A stretch of 64,000 nucleotides of DNA from Chloropicon primus (taxonomy: Eukaryota): contig CP060758.1 in assembly GCA_023205875.1 (NCBI GenBank), positions 992,001 through 1,056,000 on the forward strand, given 5' to 3'. Shown here one piece after another: positions 3,958-61,076 of the stretch. The notes below the pieces were generated by a model. The model made no database searches. It was not told where the DNA came from and saw only the letters and a program-made list of their open reading frames with translations. The number at the start of each line of letters is the position of its first letter. Within the stretch, counting starts at the first letter, position 1. A program made the translations under genes and the position numbers.

Positions 3958-4252
3958 GCCCTCAAACCCTTTTCCGCGGGATCGTCGGAGTCACCGATGA
4001 CAACACCCAGTGACTGGGTGAGACAGACGACGACACAGGGGACAACTGCAACCTGCAAACCCACTGCAGGTGAAGAACAAGAGACAAGTCGAGAGGGCGA
4101 GGAGGAGGACGGACGTCCGCCTTGTTCAGTGAATCCTTTCGTTTCGTTTCGTTTCTCTCGGGTCCCGAGGACTCAAGGTTGCTTCGAACGTTTGCTTTGC
4201 TTTGCTTGTCTCCGTGTGTTTTGATTCGGTTTGGGGTGAGGCGGGCCAGACC

Positions 4253-7219: not shown

Positions 7220-7460
7220 CAATAATGACAATAATGTAATCGTATCATATATTTTTTACCTCACACTTTTTTATTGTGCGTTTGAAAGCAAAATGCTTCT
7301 CTTTCGCGCGCTCGCGGGAGAGAGTGAGAGAGAGAGAGAGAGAGAACCATGGCGACCATGGCGGTTCCTTTGGAACCCGACGATGAGTGTCTTGGCACGA
7401 AACCAAAGCGAAAGGTGACGGCGAGCTTGACCGACGACCAGAAGTAAGGAAAGATATAAT

Positions 7461-10400
7461 ATGCAAGTGTACGACATCTACGACGCTCATGACGAGGAGC
7501 TTGTGGTGGAGCTCAGGAGGCTCAAGGCCCTGGAAGCTGGTGGAGAGGCTCTCCTCGATAGCTCGAGAAAGATTATTCACCACATCGAGCAAGAGCTCTT
7601 CGAGAGAGGCGTGTCCGGCTCCCTGTCGAACCAACTTGTTGGTATCGCGGGGGAGACACCTCAAGCGAGGGAAGAGGAGGAGGTCGGTGTGCCACCGAGC
7701 ACTCCACCTAGGCCTGAGCCCAGTCCAGTCCCGAGTCCAGTGCCGAGCCCGATGCAGACGCCGAGCCCCGCAGCAGTATTCACTCCTCCGCGCTCGAGCG
7801 AGCCGGAGGCAAATCCTCGCACGCCAGAGAACAGCCGCGCTGACGACGACGACCAAGATGACATCTTGACCCCCCTGAACCAGCCTTCCCCGAGCTCCAG
7901 CAACGCCAGCAGCGTTCAGGGGACGCCCGAGAAGTCGCTGGCTGGGGAGGATTCGGAGGCAGTCCTGGCAGAGAGTCCCTCCGTCCAGGATGCTAGCTTG
8001 ATAGCGTTCCGGGAGGAGAGGAACCGGCTTGCCTCCGCGAGGAAGTTCAACAAGCAAAAGAAGTTCATCCAAGACCGAGAGGCCATGCTCAGCCTCGCGG
8101 AGAGAAGGAAGTCGTACGCTCAACTCCTGGCCAGGAAGACGGAGAAGGCGAGAACCAAAGCCAAAAAGGCGGCGAAGAGAAGGGAGAGGGACAGCGAGCA
8201 GACTCCGACGAAGGCCAATCCATGGAAGGGCGGGAGTTCGGCGAAGGTTTCCGCCAGAAGCAGCACAAGGGAGGCGCAGCCCGTCGAAGGGGATCAGAAG
8301 ACTACTCCCAGAGCACCAAACTCTCCCTCAAAACGGGATTCTCGGCAAGCAGAGAGGAAGGGGAAGGCCAGCAAAGGCAGTAGTGAGATCGCTTCCCAAG
8401 CCGGTGCGAAGAAGGAGCCCAGTGGCGGAGGGCTTGTCAGTGTCAGGAAGCTGAAGAGCCTCAGGAAGGAGCACTCTAGTCCCCAAGCAAAGGAAAATCA
8501 CAAACCTCCAGCTGTCGTGGAGGAAACTGCGGCGGGGAACGATGGCGCCGGTGGCCATACAACGAACGGCGAGATCAAATCAATGCCTCCAGCAGAGTCC
8601 CACATTGGCGTTGGGGAAGAACAGGGGGACGAAGGAACGACGTTGATTGAGGAAGCAGATGCTGGAGGAAATGGGTCTAGCGTGCAGAGCCGCAGCGCGG
8701 GTGGTGACAGTCACCACCCCGACGAAAGCGAAGCGTGTGATTGCACATCAAAGCCTGATGATGATGAAGCGACGCGCGAGCGGGGGCCCCAGGAAGCAAT
8801 AGAATTGGAATCCGAAACCGCCGCTCCGGCGGAAGAAGCAGGTCTTGGGGTGGAGGAGTCGACGCCTCCGGTGGCGTGTGCCAAGACAGTGGCTGGGGAC
8901 AGCAATGAAGCGGCGCGCGAGCAGGAGCCCCAGGAAGCAATAGATTCCCTCCGAGCGGAGAAAGAGAGCAAGGTTGTTGTCGAAGAACCAGGCACCAAAA
9001 TACCTTTGGAGGAGAAGGTTCAGACGGAAGTTGGCGCAAGCCAGGTTCAGGGGAAAGTTGGGTCACCTGCAAGGGGGGAGGAACCTGACAGGGAAGTGGA
9101 GGCTCCGTCTCCCTCGAGCAGCACAACCTCAGATGACTTGGATATCGTACAGGATGATGCCGACGATCTTAGCAGCTCCAGCGATGAGCTGCCGTCTCCT
9201 GTTCTGCAGCTCCTTGCGCAGTCTGATCCACTGATCCACCCGTTTGCAGGTGCAGCAAAATCTTTGACGATCACAGATCTTCCTTCGCTTGAGACGAACA
9301 ACCCGCTCAGCGAGTGGATCAGGCCGATGAGCGCGCACAACGGAGTCTCCGCTTGGGGCGGTACTCCTGATCCTTCGCCACCAAGCTCCCCGAGGTTCAT
9401 GCCATCGAGGGGCAATGGCAGCCAGCTGTTCGAGAGCAAGTCAGAGCCTGGCGGTGCGGGTCAAGGCGCAAAGCAGGAAGCGCCCGCGGAATCGCCGAAG
9501 AAGCAGGACTACAACTATGCTGCCATGTATGAAAAGTTCGAGGAAATCTTTGGAAGGTTCATTGGGGAGGAGAAGCTCAGCCAAGGTCGACCGTTCTCCG
9601 CCCGAAAGAGCCCCAGCTCCAGCAAGCCCCCACCAAAGAAGGTCCAAACGAAAGCGCCTTACACGGACAGCGATCTCCTGTCTTTCTTCGAGAGGTTCAG
9701 GGGAGGGCTGTACGGCTGGCTCAGAGGGTTTCAGAGCAGGTTGAAGGCGACCCAAGAGTCCGGTGCGTTTGTGAACGGCCAGGCGGAGGATCCGGGGCGT
9801 GAGGACGAGGTTGTTGCGGGGGCGCAGATGGTATACAAGGTCACGGATGACAAGCCCGAGGTGTACAAACTCGTCACGGCCTCGTGTCACACCATCGGGG
9901 ACTGGCACGAGGACATGGTCTCGGATGCAGAGAATCCCCATTGGAATATCCTGTGGTCCTGGTCCTCCAAGCCCAAGGTGAATCGCCAGGATCTGAACAT
10001 CTGGCAGCGGGTCAACCACTATCCTGGCGCCAACCAGCTGACCCGGAAGGACATCTTGAAGAAGAACTTGGCCTACTGCAAGTCGCTGTTCAAGCCCGAC
10101 CGCAGCGTCTACAAGCTCTTTGACATCATGCCCCGCACCTTCTCCCTGCCTCAGGAGTACGTGCAGTTCTGCAACGCTTTCAGCGAGAGCATCACGTTTG
10201 AGAAGCCGGACCCCAAGGACAAGAAGGGCAAGAACGCCAAGCCAAAGATCATTTACGGGAGCGAGAACACGTGGATCATGAAGCCGGTCAGCTCTTCCAG
10301 GGGGAGGGGCATCTTTCTCATCAACAGCATCGAGGAAGTCGAGTACGGGGAGGCCTTCGTCGTCCAAAAATACGTCTCGAACCCCTTGCTGATCCACCAG

Positions 10401-11252
10401 CACAAGTTTGACCTGAGGTTGTACGTCTTAGTGACCTGCTTCAACCCCCTCGAGGCTTGGATTTACAAGGAGGGCTTCGCGCGATTCTGCTCGGTCCCTT
10501 ACTCCACCGACAGGGAGAGCATGCAGGACAAGTACGTGCACTTGACCAACTCCTCCGTGCAGCAGAAGCTGTTCAACGACCCCGACTTTGCCTTGCCGGA
10601 CTGCTTGGGGCCCATGATCAGCGACGACCCCTTGCTGTCTCTCCCCGGAGGCTCGAAGCGCAGCTTGGCGTACCTCAAGGCGAAGCTCGAGGACTACGAG
10701 ATCAACTGGGACGGTTTGTGGCAGAAGATAAGAAAGGTCGTGCTCGCCGCCCTCTTCAGCGCCCAGGGCAAAATACCCTTCCAGCCCAACAGCTTTGAGC
10801 TCTTTGGCTTCGATGTCATGCTGGACGCCAACCTCAAGGTGTGGCTCCTCGAGGTCAACGCCTCGCCTTCCCTCGGGATCCAGACGCCCCTGGACCAGCA
10901 CGTGAAGAAGCAGCTCATCTGCGACGTTCTGAGGCTAGTCGACCCGTGCCAATACGACAGAAAAGCGTTGCTGGACATCGTCCAGCGAAAGATAGTCGAG
11001 AGGTCGGAGGCAAGAGGCCAAAAGAGGTCAGAGGTGGTCAGAGGCAAGGGACGTGACTGGAGAGACTGGGTCGCAGATGAGGACCAGAAGAAGAATGCGA
11101 TTAATTCTGACCTCAAGTCCATCCTTGGGGGTCGGAGGCCCCGCCAGTACGGCGAGAAGCCCCGTCACGTGGGGAGCTTCGAGAGAGTGGCTCCCGGGAA
11201 GGACTACAATGTATTCTCAAGGCTGAAGGGATTGGGGAGGGAGGGGAGGTAG
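7461..11252 (+). CDS. Tubulin-tyrosine ligase-like (TTLL) protein, probable polyglutamylase, with a long low-complexity N-terminus
   Basis: QRVNHYPG, WIMKPVSSSRGRGI, VQKYVSNPLLI..KFDLRLYVLV, HLTNSS, FELFGFDVMLD, WLLEVNASPS. Confidence 0.9.
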   Translation: MQVYDIYDAHDEELVVELRRLKALEAGGEALLDSSRKIIHHIEQELFERGVSGSLSNQLVGIAGETPQAREEEEVGVPPSTPPRPEPSPVPSPVPSPMQTPSPAAVFTPPRSSEPEANPRTPENSRADDDDQDDILTPLNQPSPSSSNASSVQGTPEKSLAGEDSEAVLAESPSVQDASLIAFREERNRLASARKFNKQKKFIQDREAMLSLAERRKSYAQLLARKTEKARTKAKKAAKRRERDSEQTPTKANPWKGGSSAKVSARSSTREAQPVEGDQKTTPRAPNSPSKRDSRQAERKGKASKGSSEIASQAGAKKEPSGGGLVSVRKLKSLRKEHSSPQAKENHKPPAVVEETAAGNDGAGGHTTNGEIKSMPPAESHIGVGEEQGDEGTTLIEEADAGGNGSSVQSRSAGGDSHHPDESEACDCTSKPDDDEATRERGPQEAIELESETAAPAEEAGLGVEESTPPVACAKTVAGDSNEAAREQEPQEAIDSLRAEKESKVVVEEPGTKIPLEEKVQTEVGASQVQGKVGSPARGEEPDREVEAPSPSSSTTSDDLDIVQDDADDLSSSSDELPSPVLQLLAQSDPLIHPFAGAAKSLTITDLPSLETNNPLSEWIRPMSAHNGVSAWGGTPDPSPPSSPRFMPSRGNGSQLFESKSEPGGAGQGAKQEAPAESPKKQDYNYAAMYEKFEEIFGRFIGEEKLSQGRPFSARKSPSSSKPPPKKVQTKAPYTDSDLLSFFERFRGGLYGWLRGFQSRLKATQESGAFVNGQAEDPGREDEVVAGAQMVYKVTDDKPEVYKLVTASCHTIGDWHEDMVSDAENPHWNILWSWSSKPKVNRQDLNIWQRVNHYPGANQLTRKDILKKNLAYCKSLFKPDRSVYKLFDIMPRTFSLPQEYVQFCNAFSESITFEKPDPKDKKGKNAKPKIIYGSENTWIMKPVSSSRGRGIFLINSIEEVEYGEAFVVQKYVSNPLLIHQHKFDLRLYVLVTCFNPLEAWIYKEGFARFCSVPYSTDRESMQDKYVHLTNSSVQQKLFNDPDFALPDCLGPMISDDPLLSLPGGSKRSLAYLKAKLEDYEINWDGLWQKIRKVVLAALFSAQGKIPFQPNSFELFGFDVMLDANLKVWLLEVNASPSLGIQTPLDQHVKKQLICDVLRLVDPCQYDRKALLDIVQRKIVERSEARGQKRSEVVRGKGRDWRDWVADEDQKKNAINSDLKSILGGRRPRQYGEKPRHVGSFERVAPGKDYNVFSRLKGLGREGR

Positions 11253-38415: not shown

Positions 38416-39504
38416 TCAATCTTTGACGAACTTGTACATCGACACGCCCCACTGCTCGCCCCCGTCGAAGGCGAACATCTCTTCCACGGCGATGAAAAAG
38501 ACCCTCCATCTCATCCACCAAGCGTACGCCCCCCGCGGGCCATAAGCTTTCTCGCTCGCAAAGTCAGACAGGATCTCAGCCTTGTTCTCGTCCATCAACT
38601 CCAGCCAGTGCCTCGAAGTCCTCGCGTAGTGCTTCCCGTTCAGGTGCCAGGTCCTCTCGACCCTCAGGTGCTTCTGGAAGTGCAGCAGCAAACCGTGGGC
38701 TGGCATGGTCCCGCCCTCGAAGAAGTACTTGGTCATCCAGTCGCCCTCCCCCTGGACCTCGTAGTGGTACGTGTGCACAACGTGCGAGAAGATGTGGACG
38801 AAGAGCTTCCCCTGGGGCTTGAGCCACCTCGAGAGCTTCTCCAGAAGCAACTCGTAGTTCTTCATGTGCTCGAACATCTCGATCGAGAGGATACGATCGA
38901 AGCTCTCGCTGCCGAAGGAGTCGAACTCCGAGATGTCGCCCGTGTGGACCTGGAGGTTCCCAAGCCCCTCCTCCTTGGCTCTGCCCACAATGTAATTCCT
39001 CTGCGTAGTCGAGTTCGAGAGCGAGGTGATCGAGACCTTGGGGTACTTTTTCGCCAGGTAGAGGGACAGGGAGCCCCAACCGCACCCCAGGTCGAGGATC
39101 GACGCGCCCTCGCGGAGGTCCTCGAGGTCCGCGCGCTCGCAGTACAACTCCAGCATGTTTTCCTCCGCATCGGCGAGCGAGTCGCCCTCCTGCTTGTAGA
39201 GGCAGCAGCTGTACTTGAGGTGGGGACCGAGGACGCGGAGGAAGAACTCGGTCGGCACCTCGTAGTGCTGCTCGTTGGCGTCGCCCGTCTTGATCGCGAT
39301 CGGCATGCTCTTCAGCTGCTTCACCATCGAGTTCAGCTTCTCCTCGCGATCCTCCACCCCGCCTTGATCGCGTTCCGCGAGTGTCTCCCTCAGCAGCAAC
39401 CGGCTGAAGAACCTGACAACGAAATCCGGCACGTACCCTCGGTCCATCAGGGCGTACCCTGCCTTGAGAAAACCTTCCCACAACGAAGACGATACTACCA
39501 CCAT
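38416..39504 (-). CDS. SAM-dependent methyltransferase (cyclopropane fatty-acyl synthase / coclaurine N-methyltransferase-like)
   Basis: ANEQHYEVP, LKYSCCLY, ILDLGCGWGS, SIEMFEHMKNY, GGTMP. Confidence 0.9.
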   Translation of the reverse strand: MVVVSSSLWEGFLKAGYALMDRGYVPDFVVRFFSRLLLRETLAERDQGGVEDREEKLNSMVKQLKSMPIAIKTGDANEQHYEVPTEFFLRVLGPHLKYSCCLYKQEGDSLADAEENMLELYCERADLEDLREGASILDLGCGWGSLSLYLAKKYPKVSITSLSNSTTQRNYIVGRAKEEGLGNLQVHTGDISEFDSFGSESFDRILSIEMFEHMKNYELLLEKLSRWLKPQGKLFVHIFSHVVHTYHYEVQGEGDWMTKYFFEGGTMPAHGLLLHFQKHLRVERTWHLNGKHYARTSRHWLELMDENKAEILSDFASEKAYGPRGAYAWWMRWRVFFIAVEEMFAFDGGEQWGVSMYKFVKD

Positions 39505-39763
39505 CCTCCTCGCGGCGCGCACCCACAACCACGCTCGCACTCCACGAGGCTGCATCACGTGGCTCTCAATGAAGACCAGCAGCAGGTGCAGACCAGGATG
39601 TTGGAGGTTTTCCCCTGTTGGTGGGATTCCAGTGTATACCAGTTTGGTCACACCCAAAGGACAACCCACTAAGCGTTTTTCTCGTGTTCACTTGCTGGAC
39701 AAGGCAAATCTATAGTTACGAGGAGTTACGAGGAGGGCAGCGAGTGAAACCCTAATAACCGTC

Positions 39764-41854
39764 ATGGCGCGATCAGGGAAGCGCCGTAAGAAAAAGGAGA
39801 AGCAGGGGAGTGGCTCGACGAGTTCCACAAGGAGGTCGCACTCTGGCGAGAGTCATGCTCAGGGCGCTTCGAAGTCGGGGCAGGAGTCTCCGACGACGGA
39901 GCGGCCGTTACTTCGCTTCTGGAATCAGGCGTTGAAGTGGCTCTACGCGTTGTGCCTGCTTCCTACCGCGGACGACCCCGCCTCTGCGGGTGAGGGTTCG
40001 AGCACGCCTCGCAAGAAGCGGGGGGGGAAGCGGAAGGGGAAGCCGCCGGAGGCGGACGCCTCTGCGGGTGAGAGTTCGAGCTCGTCAGGCAAGCCTCGCA
40101 AGAAGCCTCGCAAGAAGGGCAAGAAGAAGAACAAGAAGAAGGGTAAGAAGAAGAAGAACAAGAGGGGGAAGAAAGCAGGGAAGCAGCCGGGTGGCTTGGC
40201 GGACGACAGCGTGAAGAACACGTGGTTCTCATCGATCAAGAGAGAACTTGAAGAGGTAAAGTGTCCGAAGACGGGATGGAGGTCGTGCTTGAACGTTCCA
40301 GAAGATTCTGTGGTATCCGTCGAGACATTGCAGCCGCCCGCCAAAAGGAAGAGGGAGCAGAAGCTGAAGACCTCCAAGCTATTGTCGGAGCGAACGGTGA
40401 TACGGACGAGGAAGCTTAGGATGCGCTTGAACCCTGAGCAGGCGAGAACACTTTGCAACTGGATGGGAGCTGCGCGTTTCACATACAACAAGTGTTTGGA
40501 GGCGGTCAAGAAGGAGGGTTTTCCGCTGGTTTGGACCGTCCTGCTGGACAGATTTGTGACGGCCAAACCGCGACGCCCTGAGGTCTTTGAGGGCCTGGAG
40601 AAAGAGCTGAAAGAAATCCAATGCTCTCCACGGCCATGGACAAAACAGGAGGCAGAGCTTTTCGCGGCCAGAGAGAAGAGACTCGAGAGCCAAATTGGAG
40701 GCAGAGCTTTTCGCCTCCAAGTGGCCAAGGACCGGGACTACGTTAGCGGGGCCTTTGTGAATCAGGAGCATCCTTGGCTGAAGGAAACCCCCTGTGCCAT
40801 CAGACAAGCTGCCGTGCGAAGTCTCATCAAGGCATGGGATTCGAACACCGCGAAGCAGGAAGCGATGAAGGAGCGCGGCGAGGAGAAGGGGCACCGCTTC
40901 GTTCTCAAGTATCGTCAACGTCAGCAACCGAGCTCTTGGACCATTGAAATTAATGCAAGAGACTTAAAGAACGTGGAGACGATCGAAAGACCGAGAACGA
41001 GGCACAAGGATGACACGAAGCACAAAAAACGACGCAAGTGGACCAAGCTGGAGGTGTTCAAGGAGAAGATGGCCGGCGGGCCCCTGTACTTGACGGAGGA
41101 GATCCCCGGGGGCAAGATCGAGGGTGCCGTGAAGATCACAAGAAATCGCCTTGGGCAGTTCCACATGCACATTCCCATCGCGACGCCATGGGATCGCCTG
41201 CCACCCCTGAAGCCTGAGAACAAGCGGAAGGTTGTCGCCCTGGATCCGGGAGTCAGGACCTTTCAGACGTCGTACTCGCCGCAAGAAGGCGTCGGGGAGT
41301 ATGCCAAGGGCGAGCGAGGCTTCGCGAGGCTGTTCAACCTCTGCCGGAGGATTGATGAGATCATTTCCGAGCGCAAAGACCCAAAGGTGAAGCTCCCTTA
41401 CCTCGACCGCCGCGACTTGAAGAGACAGCAATACGCCTGCATGGAGAAAATTCGAGGTCTGACTAACGAGCTTCACAAAAAGGTAGCCAACGATCTATGC
41501 AGGAGGTTCGACACAATCCTCCTCCCGGAGTTCAAGTCCCAAGACATGGTGAAGAAGAACAACAACGGGAGACGCCGAGTGATCAGGAAGAAGACGGCTC
41601 GCACGCTCTTGACGTTGAGGCACTATGTGTTCAGAACGTACTTGGCTTCCAAGGTGCTCTTGCACGGCAGTGAGCTGGCGATCGTGACGGAGGAGTACAC
41701 CTCCAAGACCTGTGGCAGGTGCGGACACATCAAGAAGAACCTGGGTGGAGCAGAGGTGTACAAGTGCCAGAAGTGTGGCTTCAAGTGCGGTCGGGATGTG
41801 AACGGGGCACGCAACGTCCTCCTGAAGCACTTGCGTCAACCAAAAAGTGTGTAA
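39764..41854 (+). CDS. Fz2: Fanzor (Fanzor2/IS607-TnpB-like) RNA-guided DNA endonuclease, 696 aa, intronless
   Basis: RTRKLRMRLNPEQ..L..WMGAARFTYNKCL (TnpB N-terminal), WLKETPCAIRQAAV, RuvC-I VALDPGVRTF (D494), ILLPEF (P588), alternative Glu in VTEEYTSKTC (E643/E644), Zn ribbon CGRC..CQKC, RuvC-III RDVNGARN (D678). Lys-rich N-terminal extension. Confidence 0.93.
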   Translation: MARSGKRRKKKEKQGSGSTSSTRRSHSGESHAQGASKSGQESPTTERPLLRFWNQALKWLYALCLLPTADDPASAGEGSSTPRKKRGGKRKGKPPEADASAGESSSSSGKPRKKPRKKGKKKNKKKGKKKKNKRGKKAGKQPGGLADDSVKNTWFSSIKRELEEVKCPKTGWRSCLNVPEDSVVSVETLQPPAKRKREQKLKTSKLLSERTVIRTRKLRMRLNPEQARTLCNWMGAARFTYNKCLEAVKKEGFPLVWTVLLDRFVTAKPRRPEVFEGLEKELKEIQCSPRPWTKQEAELFAAREKRLESQIGGRAFRLQVAKDRDYVSGAFVNQEHPWLKETPCAIRQAAVRSLIKAWDSNTAKQEAMKERGEEKGHRFVLKYRQRQQPSSWTIEINARDLKNVETIERPRTRHKDDTKHKKRRKWTKLEVFKEKMAGGPLYLTEEIPGGKIEGAVKITRNRLGQFHMHIPIATPWDRLPPLKPENKRKVVALDPGVRTFQTSYSPQEGVGEYAKGERGFARLFNLCRRIDEIISERKDPKVKLPYLDRRDLKRQQYACMEKIRGLTNELHKKVANDLCRRFDTILLPEFKSQDMVKKNNNGRRRVIRKKTARTLLTLRHYVFRTYLASKVLLHGSELAIVTEEYTSKTCGRCGHIKKNLGGAEVYKCQKCGFKCGRDVNGARNVLLKHLRQPKSV

Positions 41855-42060
41855 CTCCTCAGGGTTGCACATACGTTTGTTAGTACGGGCTGCCGTGCGT
41901 GGGCGGAAGTATTCGTTCATGTACGGTGGAATGGTCGTGGTAGGGCTGAATTACCCTGCCGAGAAACTTACAAACTCGGTGAAACGACCTTTGCAGAAAA
42001 CTAACAGGTAAGTAGGGGCCGGTTTCTCTCCGTGTTTCTCTCTTTCAGTGGAAAGGAGAA
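41847..42060 (+). ncRNA. Candidate Fanzor omegaRNA scaffold plus adjacent guide region (boundaries uncertain)
   Basis: Nested helices immediately 3' of the ORF: 41847-41872 hairpin, TGTTAGT/ACTAACA, GTACGG/CCGTGC, GGTCGT/ACGACC, GGTAGGG/CCCTGCC, CCGAG/CTCGG. This is the position expected for TnpB/Fanzor omegaRNAs. Confidence 0.6.
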
Positions 42061-42312
42061 CTTGCCTTTGTGCTTCCAGTATTGACTGTGATTTCCCTAC
42101 CGTCCTTTCGTGACTTTTCTGTGTGCTGTTTTTGATCTGATGTCTGAACACCATAACAAGACCTGACCTTGAAACGTGCCCGATGAGCCGCAGAAGGAGA
42201 TGAGAGTGAGAATGAGGAGTCCACGCAACACGCATTCCCGATGCCGGAGCCTCGGTATTATTAAAAAAGGGTTTATCTTTCTCAAGCAGGCTTTCATATT
42301 AATCTCGTTCCC

Positions 42313-45300
42313 TCACCTCTTCCACAGGTTCGGTGGCAGTCCGTAGTACACTGGGCTGCTTCCAGTCAATCGAGTCAGCTTGCAGGCCTTTCGAGCTCGC
42401 ATGATGCTGTTTGCGGTGAGCCTTCCCTCGTCGCCCCCCTCGCTGCTCAAGCAGTTCTCCAATACCTCCTTCGCAAACCTGTCGATGTCCTTGTCGGTCA
42501 CGTCCCACAAGTTTCCGACCGCGATGGGGCTCCCCGCAAGGAGGTAGGAGAGCAGGAACCCCCTTCCGTGACTCATGTGGTTCTTGCTCAGCCTCGCGCT
42601 GCTGCATCCCATGAGAAAGACCGGGGAGCACCTCTTCAGCTTTTCCATGGTGGACTTGGAGATGTACTGCTCGCACGTCCCGTGGCCAAAGTAGAGGAAG
42701 ATGTCCTTGAGCGACAGCATGTCGATCAGGGCGGAGTTGTCCGGGGCCTCGCCGGCCAGCCCAGCCCAGCCCTGCTGCTCGGCAAACCAGCTCTCAAAGC
42801 AAGTTTGGGTGCTCACAAGGTCGCCGCTGGGATTCAGCAGGAAGTACGCGTTGCTCCAGTTGAGGTCGGCCGCGGCTCCTGGCTCTGAGGAGGCCACCCT
42901 GGCGTGCGCTCGGTGGACGTAAGACATGGACGGCACCCTGTAAAACTCTTGGCCGCCCAGGCTGGGCAGCGATTCCCACGGGAAGGGCTGGCACTGGCCA
43001 TCCAGGGCGAGGAGGACGGGCCCAGGACTGAATTCTGCGAGAGGCGGCAGTCCCGAAGCTGCCGCCTTGATGCTCTCAGAGAGGGCCTTCAATTCCTTGT
43101 TGCCCACCGCCTGTGTTGTGGCCGAGGACGCGAGAACAGCCCTGAGCTGCACGCAGATCTGCACCGCCGTGTAGTGCCTGGCATGCAGCACCACAAGCCT
43201 CAGTAGGTCTGCAGTGCGGGGGGTGAGTTCCAAGAGCGAGCAAAGTGATCGCACTTTGCTGTCAAGGGATTCCAAGTTCTTGGTCGCCTCCCCCTGCAGA
43301 AAGACTGTGTACGGGCCCAAAATTTCCTCGTCCACCCTCTGCATGAGAGCTGAGAGCTCCTCGTCGAGGTCGATTCTCTTCTTCCACCACTTCTTCATTT
43401 GCTTCTTGTCGCTAAAGTCCCACGTGTCCTTCATGGAGGCATTGCTCCTGCAGAGGAGATCGCTGAGCTCGCCGAGGAACGTCCCTTCGCCAAGTCTGGA
43501 GCCCCCATCGAGAGGGATTTGGACAGCAACAGATCTTTCGTTCTGAAGCACTCGGGTGAGTGTCACGATGGGCTTGGGGGAGACGCGCAAAATATCTGAT
43601 GGGAGAGTCACGCTGATCGTGCACGCGGCAACTTCCTTTGGTATGATTCCAAAGAGCCTTGCGAAACTCTGAGAATTCTCCCTCAGCCCTGCCGCGTCGA
43701 CCCAACCAATGCCTTCGAATTGGCAAGGTGCCTGCTGGTCGCACTCATCGAGCTGCGTGTCCTTACCCTTGCAGAAGCCATCTCGAAGAAAATTTGTGCG
43801 AAGAATGCAGGTGCTTTGCAGGTGGTACGAAGTGCCGATCGAAGCGTGGAAAAACATCGAGGCCTGATTTGGCAGCTCAGGAGACAGGAGCAGACCCAGC
43901 AGCTGTGCAATCTTGTAGCTCAAAAGCGGAATGCCCTTGCTCTCCTTGTAGGCTTCCAGGAGTGTGTCCACAACGCCATCTCTCGCGTCTCTGTCCGTCT
44001 CGGCGCCGCCGGCGGGGTCTTCAAAGTCCAGATGGCGGACAGCAGAGTCCGTGCTCTCTTGGTGCTGACGAGGTAGAATCATTGAGCATGATGCCTCAGG
44101 CTCTTCGCTGTGTTCAAAAATCTTCAGGATCGCCGACAGGAACAAGTACCTGGATTTGTGCCCTGAGCCAGCCAGCTCTGCCAATTGCAGTAATTTCTGG
44201 CTAGCCTTCAGCAGTGTGCAAGCCTTTCCTTTCTGGCCATCCAAAATCAGTGCTTCTCCCATGAGAAGGTTTACCTCCAACGACAAGACTGAGAAGCGTG
44301 AGGCCAGTATTTTCCCTGCCACACTACTAGATTTCAACCCCACGAATCTTTCCCTCTGCACGGAAAGGGATTGCTGAGCTTGCTTTGCCTGGCACAGGGC
44401 AGATTCACATGTGCTTGCGCCCACGCTCAGAGATCCTTCACAGAGCTCTATCTCGATACCCACGAGCTGGGTGGGCAATTCCTCGAACCCGTTCTCCCTG
44501 AGCACGCCCAAACTTTTTCTTGCATTCCTCAAATGATCCTCTGCTTTGCTCGAGTTGCACCTCATGAAGTACGCTTGGCTCAATCTCAAAGATGCGATGC
44601 AAACGTAAAAGTGGTTGACGTCTGACCCAGCGAGATGGAGTATCTCGTGGTACGTCCTAGACGCGTCTTCTGGGAGGCCACACACGCATTGAAGGTCTCC
44701 GGTATAAAGCAAGCAGAGAACATGAAGATTCCTTGTCAGTGCCTTCTGGAACTCAGTTCCACCGCCCTTCGCTGTGCCAGCTTTAATCATTCCCTGCGTA
44801 AGGCGATTCGCTTCCGCTGCATGAGCCAGAGCTTTCCCGTGCTCCCCGCCCTCGTGGCACGCCGCCGCCAGAACGAGCTGCAGCAGAGTTCTCATCATGC
44901 GTCCATTCTCTTCGTTCCTGATCCAAGTGTCGATTCTGCGAGCTTCTTGCAAGACGTTGCCAGAGCCCACGAGCGAAAGCAGTTTGCCCATGAAAGTCTT
45001 TGTCGTAGGCTCCAACTCACTATGGACGCTCTGCAGCACAGAAAGGTCCTCAACGCAGACCAGCAGCTGCCTTGGGCTTACTTGCTTGGAGTAAAAGTTG
45101 ACCAGGGCGTGGCTCGTGAGCCTGCTTGCGTAGAGCAGAGCAATGCCTCCCTTTTCAAAATCGTGGTGGCTCTGGAAATGCAAGAACCACTCCTGAAGCA
45201 GGCAATTGCCTCGATCAATGAGCTCGGAGTGGCCCGAATAAGCTGCCTCTTGGCACAGGCGCGCCATTGCCTGCACGCAATGTTTTCCCAGGCAAATAAG

Positions 45301-48081
45301 TCTCCCAGGTGCCTCCCCCCGGCCCGGTTCAAGCTGGGTGAGCGTCCCCAGACACTCCTCCCAGTGCGCCATGGATTCTTCTGCAAAGGCAGACCAGTGC
45401 TCTGCATCGCTCTCTGTGCGAGAAGAAAATTTCCGAAGGTGGTTGGTCATGCAAGCCAGATTGTAGCTCATCCTGGCTGCCAGGTCCGTGCAGATGACAT
45501 TTTGGAACAGATCCACATCGTTCTCGAAACCCGCCCGGCTTTCCTGCAACTCTTTGTGCGCTTCTCTCACGAACGCAACGCTGTCCGTCACATAATGTGA
45601 GTTCTGGCAGTGCTTCCCAAAGCAAACAAGATTCTTCGTGACGGTCGAAAGGTGGACGAGCAACGCCAGTTGGTCTGACCCTTGGAATCCGCTCTCCTTC
45701 TCGTCAGCAATCAAGGGAGTGAGCAATTCCAGCAATTCCATCTGAATTCCATCCTCGTGCAGCGTCTCTGAAAGCAGAACGGTGTCCATGAACGTCAGGA
45801 AGAAGCTTGTCTTCCCACCCGCGATCAAAAGCTCGAGCAAGGTCTTGTACAGTCCTTTGTGGCGGTGCCAGACTTCGTTGGCTACCTTGACCACTCTGCA
45901 CAGCACCTTTGGAAACTGAGCGAGAGGGCAGGACATGCTTTTGATCATTTGGGCCCAAGCAACGCAATCCCCGCATTTCAACATCCCCTCAGATATTCTG
46001 ACGCCAAACAGGACAAGATCCTGTAGCTGGCTTCCGTGCAGCACCTCCACCTCTGCTACATTGTGATTCCAGCATTGCATCCCGACGCCTTTGTGGTTCT
46101 CGTCTGGATCAAAGATTGCGGACAGGGCAAGGAATGCGAGCTCGAGCATTTGCGATGCCAGGCCACACCGATTCTTTCCCAGCACTTCTATTGCGGTATT
46201 GTACACTGACTTTGCAAGCCACAGAATTTGTTCGCCGACTAGGTCTCCTCCTACCCTTCTCGTGAGTGAAAGGAACGTTTCCGCCTCGAAAGGGGGGGCT
46301 TCCTTCTCAGTCAGCCAGGATCCCCGGAGCCTGCAAGCAGCGACGAGCGAAGTCGCCATCACTGCGTAGCTCCTTTTCAAGGTATTCTGATCCGCTTCCG
46401 AGTTCTGCAGAGCTTTCACGAGGCACGGCGACGTCTCCAGTAGTGAAGTAGCTGCCCGAGCCTCAGCCTCGCTCCCAACTTTCCTCGCCTGGGAAATCCG
46501 GCTCCGGAAATCGTCCACACCGTGAATGACTGCTTCCCAGAAGATGGCGCCATGCATCGCTTTATCTGTCTTCCCGTGGGCAAGAAGGGACTCAACCTCC
46601 CCCCTGCAGTCGTTCATTGCCGTGGCACCTCCCTCGGCGCACTCTGTGAGCCGGGAGATGGCCCCCACAACCCTGCCCAGGACGTCGGTCCCGTCTAAAT
46701 CAACCGCCCTGCCCAGCGCTCCAGAGTAGTTGATCTCACCATTGTGAGCCTTGCAAACCTTTGCAAACTCCATCGCGCATCTCACGACAAGACGAGGTCT
46801 GAGGGATGCAGACTGGAAGGAGGTCTCAGGCTCCTCGTAGAACGTCCTCAATCCCGCTTCAAAGACTCGCGAGGATCTCTCCGCGCAGAGTTGCTTGCAC
46901 ATGTACGCGAGGAGGACCGGGATCTGAAGCTGCTCCTTGGTGGTCCAGGAGTTGCGCAAGGTTCCGAGAAGCAGGGCCTTGATCGCCCCGTCTTCTCCCC
47001 CTGGGACCGGACTGTTATTCGCCTCGCGCTGGAGGAGTTTGCAGCAGAAGGTTCTGACCGACGCTGCGCCTTTTGCCCCCTCCTCGTCCGGGAGAAGTTT
47101 TGCCCAGGGCCCAATCCCGGAGCAGTACGAGGCAGCCTGGCTGACCGCCACGCGCGCGGGGCTTTGGTCACCCTCCCCCTCCCTCCTGGAGTGCAGGTGG
47201 GTCAGGACGTGAAGCAGGGAGGACACCGCGGCCTCGCCGGCGCCCCTCTCCCCGATTCGATTGGCCTTGAGCGTTTCTCTCGGGTCCGCACCCCCGTGCG
47301 TCCAAGCCAGCTCCAGCACCCTCGTCGCCTGCTCGAGGCTTTGGGGCTTCATCCCCGCCCGGTGGAAGCACAGCACCAAGCTGTACATCGGACTCAAGAA
47401 GCTCAGGGGGTGTCTCCGAAAGAAGGACGACGAGGTCTCCGTTTTCCTGCACAGGGCGCCCAAGGCCGCGCGGGCTGCGTTCCAGGCCGACAGCAGCGCG
47501 CCTCGAGAGATGCTGCTCCTCTGCCTCTCCTCCAGCCCGAGCGCCGCGCTCACGAAGCCTTGGAGCCCCTCGTCCGTCTCCGAGTCCCAGTCCACGAGTC
47601 CAGCCGAGTCCCAGTCCTCGAGTGCCTGGACTACGCTCTCGCACGCTTCGGCCACCTTCTTCTCGCTCAGACCCTTCTTGAGCGCCAGGACCCGCCCCGC
47701 CTGCTCCGCCGCGTCTCTCACCCCATCCGCCGCGCCTCCGCCGCGGCTGGTGCTCGTACCCTCCGCCCCTCCTCTCGCCTCCTCGTCTTGAGAAGGACGA
47801 GGAGGCGAAGAAGAACGAGGAGGAGAAGCAGACTTCTTCGCCTTCCTCGTTCTCGTCCTCGTCTGCCTCCTCGCCCTCGCCCCGGTCCCAATCTCTCCCT
47901 CCTCCCCCACCTTCTCCGTCTTGTTGCTGCCAGAAGGAGAAGGTGGTGCCTCCATCGCCTCGGCCCTCGTCGCCCTCGTCTTCGCCCTCGTCTTCGCCCT
48001 CGTCTTCGTGTTTGTGTTTGTGTTTGTGTTCGTGGCCTCCCCGAGGGGCCCTCTGTCCAGGTCCCTCCTCCTCGTCCTCAT
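42313..48081 (-). CDS. ESP1: Separase
   Basis: C-terminal peptidase C50: WWKKRIDLD, FPWESLP, LLNPSGDL, YFGHG (His), LMGCSS (Cys), GNLWDVTDKDID. Confidence 0.93.
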   Translation of the reverse strand: MRTRRRDLDRGPLGEATNTNTNTNTKTRAKTRAKTRATRAEAMEAPPSPSGSNKTEKVGEEGEIGTGARARRQTRTRTRKAKKSASPPRSSSPPRPSQDEEARGGAEGTSTSRGGGAADGVRDAAEQAGRVLALKKGLSEKKVAEACESVVQALEDWDSAGLVDWDSETDEGLQGFVSAALGLEERQRSSISRGALLSAWNAARAALGALCRKTETSSSFFRRHPLSFLSPMYSLVLCFHRAGMKPQSLEQATRVLELAWTHGGADPRETLKANRIGERGAGEAAVSSLLHVLTHLHSRREGEGDQSPARVAVSQAASYCSGIGPWAKLLPDEEGAKGAASVRTFCCKLLQREANNSPVPGGEDGAIKALLLGTLRNSWTTKEQLQIPVLLAYMCKQLCAERSSRVFEAGLRTFYEEPETSFQSASLRPRLVVRCAMEFAKVCKAHNGEINYSGALGRAVDLDGTDVLGRVVGAISRLTECAEGGATAMNDCRGEVESLLAHGKTDKAMHGAIFWEAVIHGVDDFRSRISQARKVGSEAEARAATSLLETSPCLVKALQNSEADQNTLKRSYAVMATSLVAACRLRGSWLTEKEAPPFEAETFLSLTRRVGGDLVGEQILWLAKSVYNTAIEVLGKNRCGLASQMLELAFLALSAIFDPDENHKGVGMQCWNHNVAEVEVLHGSQLQDLVLFGVRISEGMLKCGDCVAWAQMIKSMSCPLAQFPKVLCRVVKVANEVWHRHKGLYKTLLELLIAGGKTSFFLTFMDTVLLSETLHEDGIQMELLELLTPLIADEKESGFQGSDQLALLVHLSTVTKNLVCFGKHCQNSHYVTDSVAFVREAHKELQESRAGFENDVDLFQNVICTDLAARMSYNLACMTNHLRKFSSRTESDAEHWSAFAEESMAHWEECLGTLTQLEPGRGEAPGRLICLGKHCVQAMARLCQEAAYSGHSELIDRGNCLLQEWFLHFQSHHDFEKGGIALLYASRLTSHALVNFYSKQVSPRQLLVCVEDLSVLQSVHSELEPTTKTFMGKLLSLVGSGNVLQEARRIDTWIRNEENGRMMRTLLQLVLAAACHEGGEHGKALAHAAEANRLTQGMIKAGTAKGGGTEFQKALTRNLHVLCLLYTGDLQCVCGLPEDASRTYHEILHLAGSDVNHFYVCIASLRLSQAYFMRCNSSKAEDHLRNARKSLGVLRENGFEELPTQLVGIEIELCEGSLSVGASTCESALCQAKQAQQSLSVQRERFVGLKSSSVAGKILASRFSVLSLEVNLLMGEALILDGQKGKACTLLKASQKLLQLAELAGSGHKSRYLFLSAILKIFEHSEEPEASCSMILPRQHQESTDSAVRHLDFEDPAGGAETDRDARDGVVDTLLEAYKESKGIPLLSYKIAQLLGLLLSPELPNQASMFFHASIGTSYHLQSTCILRTNFLRDGFCKGKDTQLDECDQQAPCQFEGIGWVDAAGLRENSQSFARLFGIIPKEVAACTISVTLPSDILRVSPKPIVTLTRVLQNERSVAVQIPLDGGSRLGEGTFLGELSDLLCRSNASMKDTWDFSDKKQMKKWWKKRIDLDEELSALMQRVDEEILGPYTVFLQGEATKNLESLDSKVRSLCSLLELTPRTADLLRLVVLHARHYTAVQICVQLRAVLASSATTQAVGNKELKALSESIKAAASGLPPLAEFSPGPVLLALDGQCQPFPWESLPSLGGQEFYRVPSMSYVHRAHARVASSEPGAAADLNWSNAYFLLNPSGDLVSTQTCFESWFAEQQGWAGLAGEAPDNSALIDMLSLKDIFLYFGHGTCEQYISKSTMEKLKRCSPVFLMGCSSARLSKNHMSHGRGFLLSYLLAGSPIAVGNLWDVTDKDIDRFAKEVLENCLSSEGGDEGRLTANSIMRARKACKLTRLTGSSPVYYGLPPNLWKR

Positions 48082-56695: not shown

Positions 56696-57456
56696 GGAGA
56701 AACCAGAAAAAGCAACAAGTTGCTGCTGCTGCTGCTGTTGTTGTTGTTGTTGCGATGCGGTCGCCCACTTGGAGCGAGGGAGTGAGAGTGAGCCCCTCCC
56801 TCCATCGCTGCCGCCGCCGTCGTCGTCGTTTCTCGGAAATTATCGCCTTCGTCGTCCGCTGTGGCTGTGGGGCGTGACCTCGTACGTTATGCTCGAGGGC
56901 CGAGCCCTGGGGCGCGCAGCTCATTCTTTTCTTCAAGGAGGAGGAGGAAAGAGGAGGAGGAAAGAGGAGGAAGGAGCGACTGATTTGCGCACACGGCAGC
57001 AACGCCGAATCGCGAGGAGGACCCGATGCCGACCCCACCGCCCTCGATGACGGGATCCGTGGTCCGAGACTGCCCGGTGGAGGACCCCGGGAAGAATCCA
57101 ATCCAATCCAATCCAAACCAATCCAAACCAATCCTCCGTCGGGAGTCGAGAGTCGAGAGTCGAGAGTCGAGTCATGGTTGGTTCCCTCCTCCTCCTCTTC
57201 CTATTGCATGTGTGATGATGGAGTCATCGTCGCCATGATCCTCTCCTCTGGCTCTTCATCATCCCATCAAGATATTTTCTAGTTTTCGTAACTCCTGGCT
57301 AAGGTCTCAGCAGGGACGAGGGGGAATGACTCCATCATCGTCATCGGCATCGTAACGGTTTGGGGCGTTGTGTGTGGTTGTTGTTCCTGACCAATAGAAA
57401 CCCTAAGCACGGCGGCGACCAACACCAACACCAACACCACGAGGACGACGACGAGG

Positions 57457-58278
57457 ATGAGGAAGATGACGACGATGAAGTCCGCACTGGGGGCGGCGGT
57501 GCTCCTTCTGCTGCTCTCCGCGCAAGCGAGGGCGAGCGAGGACGACCACGACCACGGGCACGACGACCACGGGCACGGGCACGCCCACGAGAAGTGCGCC
57601 TGCCTGGCCAAGAAGAAGGGGTTTACGATCGGGTGCTCGGGGGACACCATGGGCCAGGTCGAGGGCGCCATCGAGACCCTGAAGAACCCCGCGAACGGGT
57701 GCAAGGACGGCAGCTGCGAGACGCAGTACTACATCTTGCAGGCCCACCACGATTTCTGCCCCACAGACATGCTGCCAAGGGAGGCCGAGAAGTTCATTCA
57801 CGACTTCGAGGATAACTACGAGGACTGCTTCATCCCCAGGCTGCTCGATCCCTCCCTGGAGGCTTGCCCGCCCGTGGACTGCAACGCCACGGACGCCTTC
57901 ACGCAGGCCGCCGCGGCGCTGGAGAGCGGGGACTGCAAGACCTCCTGCGACTCGGACGCGTGCAAGGTCGCCATCCAGACCATTCTCATGGGTCACGACA
58001 CTTGCGATGAGGACGACTTGCCCATCGAGGTTGAGAAGGCTCTCCACGATTACGAGATGGCTTGCGCCCCCAACCTGTGCAACACGAGCGACAAGCCGTA
58101 CGAGCCTGGGATGGAGAAATGCGACGACGACCATGACGACGACCATGACGACGACCATGACGATGATCACGGCGACGACGACCATGACGACCATGATGAC
58201 GACCATGATGACGACCATGACCACGACGATGAGGACAAGGCCAAGGAAACCGCCACACCTGTATCCACTTCTGACTGA
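57457..58278 (+). CDS. Secreted His/Asp/Cys-rich putative metal-binding protein, copy 1
   Basis: Signal peptide, His-rich N-terminus, two Cys-rich repeats with H-D-x-C...H-D-F/Y-E, (DDDH)n tail. Confidence 0.8.
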   Translation: MRKMTTMKSALGAAVLLLLLSAQARASEDDHDHGHDDHGHGHAHEKCACLAKKKGFTIGCSGDTMGQVEGAIETLKNPANGCKDGSCETQYYILQAHHDFCPTDMLPREAEKFIHDFEDNYEDCFIPRLLDPSLEACPPVDCNATDAFTQAAAALESGDCKTSCDSDACKVAIQTILMGHDTCDEDDLPIEVEKALHDYEMACAPNLCNTSDKPYEPGMEKCDDDHDDDHDDDHDDDHGDDDHDDHDDDHDDDHDHDDEDKAKETATPVSTSD

Positions 58279-58804
58279 GGCGTCGGCCAATTTTCAGCAA
58301 AGCAGTGCATTGACATGAAATGAATTTTTGGGTGAATGAATGAATGCCCGCCTCCCCCGCCTCCTACTCCGGGCGGAACGACCCGTCCCCCCTGGCTTTC
58401 CACTTTCCTGCGAAGACCTCCGACGGTGATCGACCCCGCGATGATGATGATGATGAGATCGACCGGGGAGGAGGACGCCGGGAAGAATCCAATCCAATCC
58501 CCTGTCGACTTCAATCGAGTCATGGTTGGTTCCCTCCTCCTCCTCTTCCTATTGCATGTGTGATGATGGAGTCATCGTCGCCATGATCCTCTCCTCTGGC
58601 TCTTCATCATCCCATCAAGATATTTTCTAGTTTTCGTAACTCCTGGCTAAGGTCTCAGCAGGGACGAGGGGGAATGACTCCATCATCGTCATCGGCATCG
58701 TAACGGTTTGGGGCGTTGTGTGTGGTTGTTGTTCCTGACCAATAGAAACCCTAAGCACGGCGGCGACCAACACCAACACCAACACCACGAGGACGACGAC
58801 GAGG

Positions 58805-59626
58805 ATGAGGAAGATGACGACGATGAAGTCCGCACTGGGGGCGGCGGTGCTCCTTCTGCTGCTCTCCGCGCAAGCGAGGGCGAGCGAGGACGACCACGAC
58901 CACGGGCACGACGACCACGGGCACGGGCACGCCCACGAGAAGTGCGCCTGCCTGGCCAAGAAGAAGGGGTTTACGATCGGGTGCTCGGGGGACACCATGG
59001 GCCAGGTCGAGGGCGCCATCGAGACCCTGAAGAACCCCGCGAACGGGTGCAAGGACGGCAGCTGCGAGACGCAGTACTACATCTTGCAGGCCCACCACGA
59101 TTTCTGCCCCACAGACATGCTGCCAAGGGAGGCCGAGAAGTTCATTCACGACTTCGAGGATAACTACGAGGACTGCTTCATCCCCAGGCTGCTCGATCCC
59201 TCCCTGGAGGCTTGCCCGCCCGTGGACTGCAACGCCACGGACGCCTTCACGCAGGCCGCCGCGGCGCTGGAGAGCGGGGACTGCAAGACCTCCTGCGACT
59301 CGGACGCGTGCAAGGTCGCCATCCAGACCATTCTCATGGGTCACGACACTTGCGATGAGGACGACTTGCCCATCGAGGTTGAGAAGGCTCTCCACGATTA
59401 CGAGATGGCTTGCGCCCCCAACCTGTGCAACACGAGCGACAAGCCGTACGAGCCTGGGATGGAGAAATGCGACGACGACCATGACGACGACCATGACGAC
59501 GACCATGACGATGATCACGGCGACGACGACCATGACGACCATGATGACGACCATGATGACGACCATGACCACGACGATGAGGACAAGGCCAAGGAAACCG
59601 CCACACCTGTATCCACTTCTGACTGA
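58805..59626 (+). CDS. Secreted His/Asp/Cys-rich putative metal-binding protein, copy 2
   Basis: Identical protein to copy 1. Confidence 0.8.
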   Translation: MRKMTTMKSALGAAVLLLLLSAQARASEDDHDHGHDDHGHGHAHEKCACLAKKKGFTIGCSGDTMGQVEGAIETLKNPANGCKDGSCETQYYILQAHHDFCPTDMLPREAEKFIHDFEDNYEDCFIPRLLDPSLEACPPVDCNATDAFTQAAAALESGDCKTSCDSDACKVAIQTILMGHDTCDEDDLPIEVEKALHDYEMACAPNLCNTSDKPYEPGMEKCDDDHDDDHDDDHDDDHGDDDHDDHDDDHDDDHDHDDEDKAKETATPVSTSD

Positions 59627-60152
59627 GGCGTCGGCCAATTTTCAGCAAAGCAGTGCATTGACATGAAATGAATTTTTGGGTGAATGAATGAATGCCCGCC
59701 TCCCCCGCCTCCTACTCCGGGCGGAACGACCCGTCCCCCCTGGCTTTCCACTTTCCTGCGAAGACCTCCGACGGTGATCGACCCCGCGATGATGATGATG
59801 ATGAGATCGACCGGGGAGGAGGACGCCGGGAAGAATCCAATCCAATCCCCTGTCGACTTCAATCGAGTCATGGTTGGTTCCCTCCTCCTCCTCTTCCTAT
59901 TGCATGTGTGATGATGGAGTCATCGTCGCCATGATCCTCTCCTCTGGCTCTTCATCATCCCATCAAGATATTTTCTAGTTTTCGTAACTCCTGGCTAAGG
60001 TCTCAGCAGGGACGAGGGGGAATGACTCCATCATCGTCATCGGCATCGTAACGGTTTGGGGCGTTGTGTGTGGTTGTTGTTCCTGACCAATAGAAACCCT
60101 AAGCACGGCGGCGACCAACACCAACACCAACACCACGAGGACGACGACGAGG

Positions 60153-60974
60153 ATGAGGAAGATGACGACGATGAAGTCCGCACTGGGGGCGGCGGTGCTC
60201 CTTCTGCTGCTCTCCGCGCAAGCGAGGGCGAGCGAGGACGACCACGACCACGGGCACGACGACCACGGGCACGGGCACGCCCACGAGAAGTGCGCCTGCC
60301 TGGCCAAGAAGAAGGGGTTTACGATCGGGTGCTCGGGGGACACCATGGGCCAGGTCGAGGGCGCCATCGAGACCCTGAAGAACCCCGCGAACGGGTGCAA
60401 GGACGGCAGCTGCGAGACGCAGTACTACATCTTGCAGGCCCACCACGATTTCTGCCCCACAGACATGCTGCCAAGGGAGGCCGAGAAGTTCATTCACGAC
60501 TTCGAGGATAACTACGAGGACTGCTTCATCCCCAGGCTGCTCGATCCCTCCCTGGAGGCTTGCCCGCCCGTGGACTGCAACGCCACGGACGCCTTCACGC
60601 AGGCCGCCGCGGCGCTGGAGAGCGGGGACTGCAAGACCTCCTGCGACTCGGACGCGTGCAAGGTCGCCATCCAGACCATTCTCATGGGTCACGACACTTG
60701 CGATGAGGACGACTTGCCCATCGAGGTTGAGAAGGCTCTCCACGATTACGAGATGGCTTGCGCCCCCAACCTGTGCAACACGAGCGACAAGCCGTACGAG
60801 CCTGGGATGGAGAAATGCGACGACGACCATGACGACGACCATGACGACGACCATGATGATGATCACGGCGACGACGACCATGACGACCATGATGACGACC
60901 ATGATGACGACCATGACCACGACGATGAGGACAAGGCCAAGGAAACCGCCACACCTGTATCCACTTCTGACTGA
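60153..60974 (+). CDS. Secreted His/Asp/Cys-rich putative metal-binding protein, copy 3
   Basis: Identical protein; a synonymous C>T in the Asp/His tail. Confidence 0.8.
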   Translation: MRKMTTMKSALGAAVLLLLLSAQARASEDDHDHGHDDHGHGHAHEKCACLAKKKGFTIGCSGDTMGQVEGAIETLKNPANGCKDGSCETQYYILQAHHDFCPTDMLPREAEKFIHDFEDNYEDCFIPRLLDPSLEACPPVDCNATDAFTQAAAALESGDCKTSCDSDACKVAIQTILMGHDTCDEDDLPIEVEKALHDYEMACAPNLCNTSDKPYEPGMEKCDDDHDDDHDDDHDDDHGDDDHDDHDDDHDDDHDHDDEDKAKETATPVSTSD

Positions 60975-61076
60975 GGCGTCGGCCAATTTTCAGCAAAGCA
61001 GTGTATTGACATGAAATGAATTTTTAGCGTGAACCAATGAATGAAAGAATGAATGAATGCCCGCCTCCCCCACCTC

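Follow-up and report, generated by a model that had tools for sequence, protein, structure and literature searches.

How does a Fanzor2 nuclease obtain its guide when the scaffold of its RNA does not lie at the boundary of the element that moves it? This question is raised by a locus of Chloropicon primus, in a 64-kb stretch of contig CP060758.1 (positions 992,001 to 1,056,000 of the forward strand; here called the window, whose first letter is position 1), where an element with a Fanzor2 gene sits between an S-adenosylmethionine (SAM) methyltransferase gene and a separase gene (Table 1). A first-pass annotation, made from the letters of this DNA, had described an open reading frame (ORF) of 696 amino acids (aa) flanked by these genes, and the ORF listing and the Pfam matches of the neighbors (CMAS and Peptidase_C50) bear this out; its segment limit of 42060, in contrast, is no boundary, as the element reaches from 39599 to 42158. 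We place the end of the predicted omegaRNA scaffold, with high confidence, at 42007, which is 151 nucleotides (nt) inside the right end of the element. Our preferred reading, to which we give a probability of about 0.45, is that this 2.56-kb non-autonomous transposon maintains itself by a nuclease with a splice-attached guide that cuts empty alleles.

The structured RNA-like tract that the first-pass annotation had seen behind the gene is real (41852 to 42007; folding z score, −4.23; 0 of 200 shuffles), but it stops at 42007, and the tail from 42008 onward is unstructured (z score, −0.60). The window and four related loci (L001, L002, L004, and L005) each form a hairpin around the stop codon, on the 5′ side, and close the 3′ end by a long-range helix. 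Across these five homologues, 49 of the 50 cells of the scaffold stem and the pseudoknot pair and 7 of the 10 pairs show two-sided changes, with slid controls at 20 to 49% and 0 of 500 shuffles, a count that is not a probability. Three further loci (L003, L006, and L007) were left out because they had no motif match or because the contig ended. The conserved terminal G of the scaffold alignment falls on 42007, and a pseudoknot near the 3′ end of the scaffold has been described for both TnpB (10.1101/2023.08.09.552727) and Fanzor2 (PMC11832414). A search against Rfam gave two chance-level matches only and no group I intron family.

The ends of the mobile unit were fixed by published insertions. 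Supplementary Data 8 of PMC6731263 holds three heterozygous insertions of the element (2.66 to 2.71 kb), supported by 5 of 12, 5 of 13, and 5 of 24 reads; in the part of that table covered, with up to 400 characters per cell, at least 10 rows exceed 400 letters, and 3 of these are element insertions while none is an element deletion. Compared by eye, one inserted sequence, in forward orientation, starts at TGTTGGAGG, and the two in reverse orientation start at the complement of CCATAACA; these are the left end at 39599 and the right end at 42158 in the window. A contig of X5, one of three RNA-like sequencing runs (X2, X5, and X7; X2 and X5 come from different studies), departs from the window sequence behind 42161, in agreement with this right end. 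The terminal inverted ends match at 8 of 20 positions. De novo enumeration of terminal inverted repeats (TIRs) as well as target site duplications (TSDs) within the window had been ambiguous, with AGACC among several chance-level candidates before the ends were fixed, and the candidate ends 39547 to 42220, 39578 to 42158, and 39562 to 42173 were dropped in favor of those given by the published insertions. The insertion on chromosome 17 fits a 5-nt duplication if one read error is assumed. At Chromosome_17:327257-327259, the same supplementary table places the start of a 31.7-kb heterozygous deletion two bases from the element insertion, which could be an element-linked rearrangement.

The element is thus polymorphic, and domestication, an option that the first-pass annotation had kept, is therefore excluded. 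None of the marks of a domesticated gene (fixed, at a single locus, under purifying selection) was found for the window gene. More broadly, that the locus is a domesticated host gene, a contaminant, or a misassembly is largely refuted and almost certainly wrong. The locus does lie between ordinary genes, and no contig bridging either element junction was found among the contigs listed, but copies are dispersed on many contigs, the heterozygous insertions are seen in long reads, and the GC content (55.6%) is host-like (52 to 68%). The label non-autonomous, in turn, agrees with the degenerate ends and with the lack of an intact transposase among the 35 of 75 long window frames that were scanned. 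The remark that no transposase is adjacent holds for intact genes in those frames, but the Fanzor2 ORF overlaps with the decayed remains of an IS607 TnpA. The carrier, with its TG...CA ends and candidate 5-bp duplication, could be a long terminal repeat or Ginger-like element.

As the scaffold ends at 42007, a guide is expected from 42008, yet the element continues for 151 unstructured bases. For an IS607 Fanzor captured in a eukaryotic transposon, the scaffold comes to lie off the mobile boundary, and its guide would thus be expected to freeze. According to the published solution, the element ends are absorbed into the scaffold (PMC10711439), where TIR and TSD are said to appear part of the Fanzor2* scaffold. 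Applied to the window, the scaffold would reach the element end, including the inverted repeat and the target duplication, and the guide would follow 42163. We consider this very unlikely, since the pseudoknot closes at 42000 to 42005 and in the solved Fanzor2 structure and in TnpB it sits at the last few scaffold bases, and since the tail does not fold. Rather, the C. primus family seems to keep the ancestral scaffold, with a splice donor at its last base.

The signals around this base resemble those of an intron. CAG/GTAAGT falls exactly at the scaffold end, and the donor is similar to the donors of the window's native introns; in relatives and in one variant, the last letters of the scaffold are CGG or CCG, not CAG. 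Both published copies in which the right end is seen (chromosomes 3 and 6) retain GTAAGT, and one of them differs in the bases that follow. The first AG past the element, at 42159 to 42160, gives an intron of 153 nt, and the mean intron size in C. primus is 152 (PMC6731263). AG directly follows the right end in three of five insertions (window, X5 contig, and chromosome 3) and, by inference, in that on chromosome 17, while the chromosome 6 insertion has ACAG; the background frequency of AG is 7.6% per position. In both X2 and X5, contigs break off at 42007, which is rated as a weak hint, and one X7 contig passes from 42008 into 46 foreign letters. The depth in the RNA-like runs falls after 41907 to 42073 (X5, 1,994 to 108; X2, 235 to 48.5; X7, 17 to 0; compared with 10,070 to 7,451 in the DNA run X1), but neither the ends nor the level of an RNA can be read from contig depth, which was not used as evidence. 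That splicing supplies the guide has, in our estimate, not quite an even chance; if true, such enzymes would be aimed in an undescribed manner.

The RNA-like runs also hold an internally deleted derivative, in which 40286 is joined to a variant right end (ACTAACGG followed directly by GTAAGT), as well as 5′-truncated pieces starting near 41712 to 41727 (loose ends, 41712 to 41894) and a copy in which the inner RNA stem differs. These may be RNA-only or older subfamily copies.

We propose the following sequence of steps. One transcript would carry the Fanzor2 ORF and the scaffold; the intron from 42008 to 42160 would be removed, with an acceptor AG that comes from the target site; and the spliced RNA would consist of the scaffold and the right flank as guide. 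The ribonucleoprotein would then cut vacant sites behind an AG-ending motif, and repair from the filled homologue or sister would restore the element. With a flank guide, the target would be the empty allele, which exists in diploid C. primus. Bacterial TnpB preserves its own element by cutting vacant sites (bioRxiv 10.1101/2023.11.20.567912), and a like role has been suggested for Fanzors (PMC10432273). A stronger version is that of a spliceosome-programmed nuclease, in which the element brings the 5′ splice site at its scaffold end, the AG of the insertion site provides the 3′ splice site, and each insertion writes its own guide; we hold this view tentatively and with considerable doubt.

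Several observations weigh against this account. The joint between 42007 and 42161 was absent among the contigs listed, and contigs of the RNA-like runs cross the donor (X2, 41978 to 42132; X5, to 42161; and the deletion derivative in both X2 and X5). That X2, X5, and X7 are RNA is only a guess, and what is seen as a junction in X7 could be a DNA copy terminating at the former IS607 end. Read by eye, the acceptor AAG and the branch-like CTGAT are weaker than the CAG and CTGAC of native introns. The five sequences behind the covariation were chosen by eye and the structure was derived from them, and a generic scan was near background (19 of 134 loci versus 117 of 1,340 shuffles). The window copy has no clean duplication at its ends, with AGACC 4 nt off the left end, and the insertions on chromosomes 3 and 6 carry 25 to 26 unexplained extra bases at the right end. 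The filled site likewise carries AG before the target, and the motif must therefore discriminate further upstream. Finally, heterozygous copies persist, and the variants listed show no sign of selection on the protein (see below). The extra bases at Chromosome_3:123680 and Chromosome_6:369520, both reverse-oriented insertions, have about the length of a duplication plus a guide and are possibly a long duplication or a caller artifact.

The same donor and tail could be read without splicing. An unspliced omegaRNA would carry positions 42008 to 42022 as a fixed internal guide in every copy and would target Fanzor-less carriers (39599 to 39744 joined to 42008 to 42158) or copies without the cassette, so that the cassette homes in the carrier family and the splice donor is merely the old target site. 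The bases behind the scaffold are indeed element-internal in all three copies seen, read-through contigs exist, one of them with a run of A about 14 nt past the scaffold (an X5 loose end), and both inner borders have the same AG, as an IS607 insertion would leave. However, the joint between 39744 and 42008 was absent among the X1 contigs listed, the bases after GTAAGT vary between copies, and the sole other match of this guide in the window has three mismatches, which is at chance level. We regard a fixed guide as rather unlikely.

The inner borders and the protein-coding DNA point to an IS607 ancestry. Two collinear pieces of a decayed TnpA, a serine recombinase, lie in another frame under the Fanzor N terminus; they rank first and second of 1,164 window tiles with a six-sequence near-clade profile (E values, 4.4e-5 and 2.4e-3) and are the top two tblastn matches in the 64 kb, although this similarity is not independent of the conservation of the Fanzor frame, which uses the same DNA. 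The relic was not significant with a broad profile of 75 TnpA sequences (E value, 4) or with Pfam. An X5 contig with different upstream sequence joins at the putative inner left border (39743 to 39745), and the AG of this border recurs at the scaffold end (42006 to 42007). A TnpA match was found at 100 of 158 related loci. In a tree of the RuvC half (FastTree; 154 rows; midpoint root), the window falls in a 31-row clade (support, 0.995) with L005, L006, L001, L002, and L004; TnpA is intact in L005 and L006 (Resolvase and MerR) and partial or broken in the other three. In L005, the TnpA frame (220 to 1011) overlaps the Fanzor frame (344 to 2245). Since the TnpA pieces lie under the Fanzor N terminus, the extension of about 200 aa there is partly overprinted on a dead transposase. 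The window element itself is no canonical IS607 element, as it has no intact serine-recombinase TnpA and its insertions reach 151 nt past the scaffold end. An IS607 element with TnpA and Fanzor2 may have landed in a eukaryotic element of about 300 bp with TG...CA ends, lost its TnpA, and since moved with its carrier through an enzyme encoded elsewhere.

Within the window, a 37-nt duplication in the Fanzor N terminus (39979 to 40093) also duplicates part of the TnpA relic, and many copies hold a further 27-aa duplication at the N terminus (723 aa). Another relative, L003:1047-3638, is a 53%-identical Fanzor2 with no TnpA match; its contig is virus-like and encodes a viral-type poly(A) polymerase, a WLM peptidase, and an ABC1 kinase. 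This Fanzor2 is bounded by 78-nt inverted repeats (1335 to 1412 and 3316 to 3393; 99%) that cover the downstream RNA region, plus a 247-nt direct repeat (96%), and may have exchanged IS607 ends for inverted ends independently.

The first-pass identification as Fanzor2 was upheld by domain, sequence, and fold searches with the protein. Pfam gave TNB (E value, 3.6e-17) and HTH_OrfB_IS605 (E value, 8.6e-8); NCBIfam gave guided_TnpB (E value, 6.4e-28, slightly below the cutoff of that model); and the top sequence match in PDB was 9b0l, the mimivirus Fanzor2 (E value, 1.5e-19). A fold search with an AlphaFold2 model of residues 200 to 696, built on 24 sequences (pLDDT, 77.6), also ranked 9b0l first (E value, 1.9e-15) and Fanzor1 9cey 44th (E value, 1.6e-5), so the modeled fold is TnpB-like and nearer Fanzor2 than Fanzor1. 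The DPG motif at RuvC1 (D494-P495-G496, in ALDPG), the CxxC pairs, and D678 lie where they had been annotated, as does P588 (ILLPEF), which occupies the canonical RuvC Glu site, with no Glu there. The N-terminal helix motif is present but lies behind the extension, and the catalytic Glu does fall in VTEEYTSKTC but is E643, not E644; it stands six residues before the Zn finger, the alternative Fanzor position. In the sequence alignment, D494, E643, and D678 fall on D324, E467, and D501 of 9b0l (the E467 match was counted by hand), the triad named for the mimivirus Fanzor2 in PMC11832414, and the published Fanzor pattern (PMC10711439) fits the window protein over residues 494 to 678 with E643. 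The catalytic residues thus look as intact as had been claimed, and we predict that the enzyme is probably active. Two other proteins, P0027 and P0075 (921 to 947 aa), fuse XPG nuclease domains to a TnpB Zn-finger/RuvC end that is about 51% identical to the C-terminal quarter of the window protein.

The gene is almost certainly one copy of a C. primus family of about 25, a member of Fanzor2*. A homologue search with residues 200 to 696 gave 882 matches among 7,998 scored candidates, and the top ones were C. primus proteins annotated as "putative IS605 transposase" (88 to 97% identical, some of them 95 to 97%). The window protein belongs to a 46-member cluster whose copies are dispersed across many contigs, and the 14 other members among those listed are all from C. 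primus. The published genome has 25 such genes (PMC6731263, Supplementary Data 6), and the curated Fanzor2* entry UPR03652.1 (P0002) is 97% identical to the window protein. The novelty that the first-pass annotation implied therefore does not hold: the gene family is already annotated and catalogued, under the name Fanzor2* (PMC10711439; bioRxiv 10.1101/2023.08.09.552727), as non-autonomous, with degenerate TIRs, a variable 5-nt TSD, and no partner found. In the DNA run X1, depth was 4,200 to 10,800 within the element versus 109 to 126 in the flanks, where depth is summed over contigs and is not a copy number; the X1 flanks are identical to the window, of which X1 may be the source, and hence are not independent. 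An exact-peptide search of viral contigs gave no match to the window protein.

Whether the nuclease serves the element bears on a further alternative, in which the Fanzor cassette is a passenger of a recently active carrier, the guide position and the donor are accidental, and the nuclease is of little or no use to the element. Among the 40 of 82 variant rows listed, 36 variants lie in the ORF, and their ratio of 9 synonymous to 27 non-synonymous looks neutral; the copies are 91 to 97% identical, so their intact triads may reflect youth, and heterozygous empty alleles survive. On the other hand, of 23 C. primus proteins, among them that of the window but not seven short fragments of metagenomic origin, 21 retain all ten key residues, and the remaining two stop short of the RuvC region. 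The scaffold fold is also maintained, and the Fanzor frame stayed open while the overlapping TnpA decayed. We judge a useless passenger to be unlikely.

Comparison with known systems sets the proposed splice-attached guide apart. Relative to Fanzor2* in PMC10711439, the window element is of the same family, but its scaffold stops at a splice donor, 151 nt before the element end, and the element holds a TnpA relic; the main text of that paper does not contain the words "splic," "intron," or "overlap," and no activity assay of the family is mentioned in the excerpts available. The mimivirus ApmFz2 (9b0l; PMC11832414) shares the triad alignment, an N-terminal extension, and a pseudoknot at the scaffold 3′ end but is viral, is only 18% identical in the fold alignment, and has a measured target-adjacent motif (TAM), GGG. 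The IS607-type L005 and L006 are about 40% identical, with TnpA overlapping the Fanzor N terminus, and L005 shares the RNA architecture of the window; their TnpA is intact, whereas that of the window is a relic within a larger carrier. In IStrons (bioRxiv 10.1101/2023.11.20.567912), as proposed for the window element, the end of the transposon is where the guide RNA of TnpB meets an intron, but these are bacterial self-splicing group I introns that conflict with the guide, whereas the window has spliceosomal signals and splicing would create the guide. For introners (bioRxiv 10.1101/2022.06.06.494994), co-option of splice sites from target duplications is known, but they are spliced out whole, with no nuclease mentioned in the excerpts available, and the window element would lose only its 151-nt tail. 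Our literature searches, mostly of non-subscription papers, found no account of the RNA border, the splice donor, or the TnpA relic of the C. primus Fanzor family.

Table 1. Features of the Fanzor2 element and its surroundings (window coordinates, or protein residues where stated)
Feature	Position	Strand	Basis
Fanzor2 ORF, 696 aa, uninterrupted	39764-41854	+	ORF listing, Pfam, NCBIfam, PDB sequence and fold searches
Predicted omegaRNA scaffold: 5′ hairpin over stop codon, pseudoknot, long inner stems	41847-42007	+	folding, covariation
Scaffold stem with 8-nt loop	41874-41876/41885-41887	+	folding, covariation
Pseudoknot GTTAGT : ACTAAC	41879-41884 : 42000-42005	+	covariation in five homologues
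Non-autonomous mobile unit of 2560 bp with short, degenerate inverted ends (TGTT...AACA)	39599-42158	+	three published insertions, X5 contig
Left copy of candidate 5-nt target duplication AGACC, imperfect, 4 nt off left end	39590-39594	+	proposed
Right copy of candidate duplication AGACC; first two bases are proposed 3′ splice acceptor	42159-42163	+	proposed
Proposed spliceosomal intron of 153 nt with donor GTAAGT (42008); T-rich (38%) and unstructured, with branch-like CTGAT 20 nt ahead of the AG	42008-42160	+	proposed
Proposed post-splicing guide, right flank of window insertion	42161-42176	+	proposed
Decayed IS607 TnpA (serine recombinase) relic, other frame, under Fanzor N terminus, stop codons	39820-40002, 40192-40362	+	near-clade profile, tblastn
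Putative left border of inner IS607 remnant, AG followed by TGAAACCC	39743-39745	+	sequence, X5 contig
N-terminal extension, about 200 aa, basic, low-complexity; putative nuclear localization signal	before residue 213	+	sequence
HTH helix motif	residues 213-249	+	Pfam HTH_OrfB_IS605
RuvC triad D494 (41243), E643 (41690), D678 (41795)	41243-41797	+	residue check, 9b0l alignment
Zn finger, CxxC 650-653 and 668-671	41711-41776	+	sequence
SAM methyltransferase gene	38416-39555	-	Pfam CMAS
Separase gene	42313-48081	-	Pfam Peptidase_C50

Elsewhere in the window, separase-side contigs of X2 and X5 both cease to match at position 42183, which lies 25 bases away from the end of the element and is perhaps the poly(A) site of separase. 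From 57167 to 61000, a 1,348-bp unit is repeated in tandem in three almost identical copies, each with a frame of about 295 aa that has no Pfam match and with a 12-bp minisatellite.

The significance of the locus lies in the anatomy of its RNA rather than in the gene, which contributes little of its own. A stage on the way from IS607 to Fanzor2* can still be seen in the family, where the Fanzor N terminus overlies the remains of the transposase. If splicing supplies the guide, the spliceosome would be linked to guide biogenesis, and a downstream host exon reached by alternative splicing could also become a guide. A single AG dinucleotide would then combine three roles, as the preferred place of insertion, as the splice acceptor, and as a portion of the target motif, and the element would home into empty alleles of its diploid algal host. 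As a culturable alga with about 25 natural guides as well as heterozygous sites, C. primus would be well suited to testing the role of Fanzors in their native hosts.

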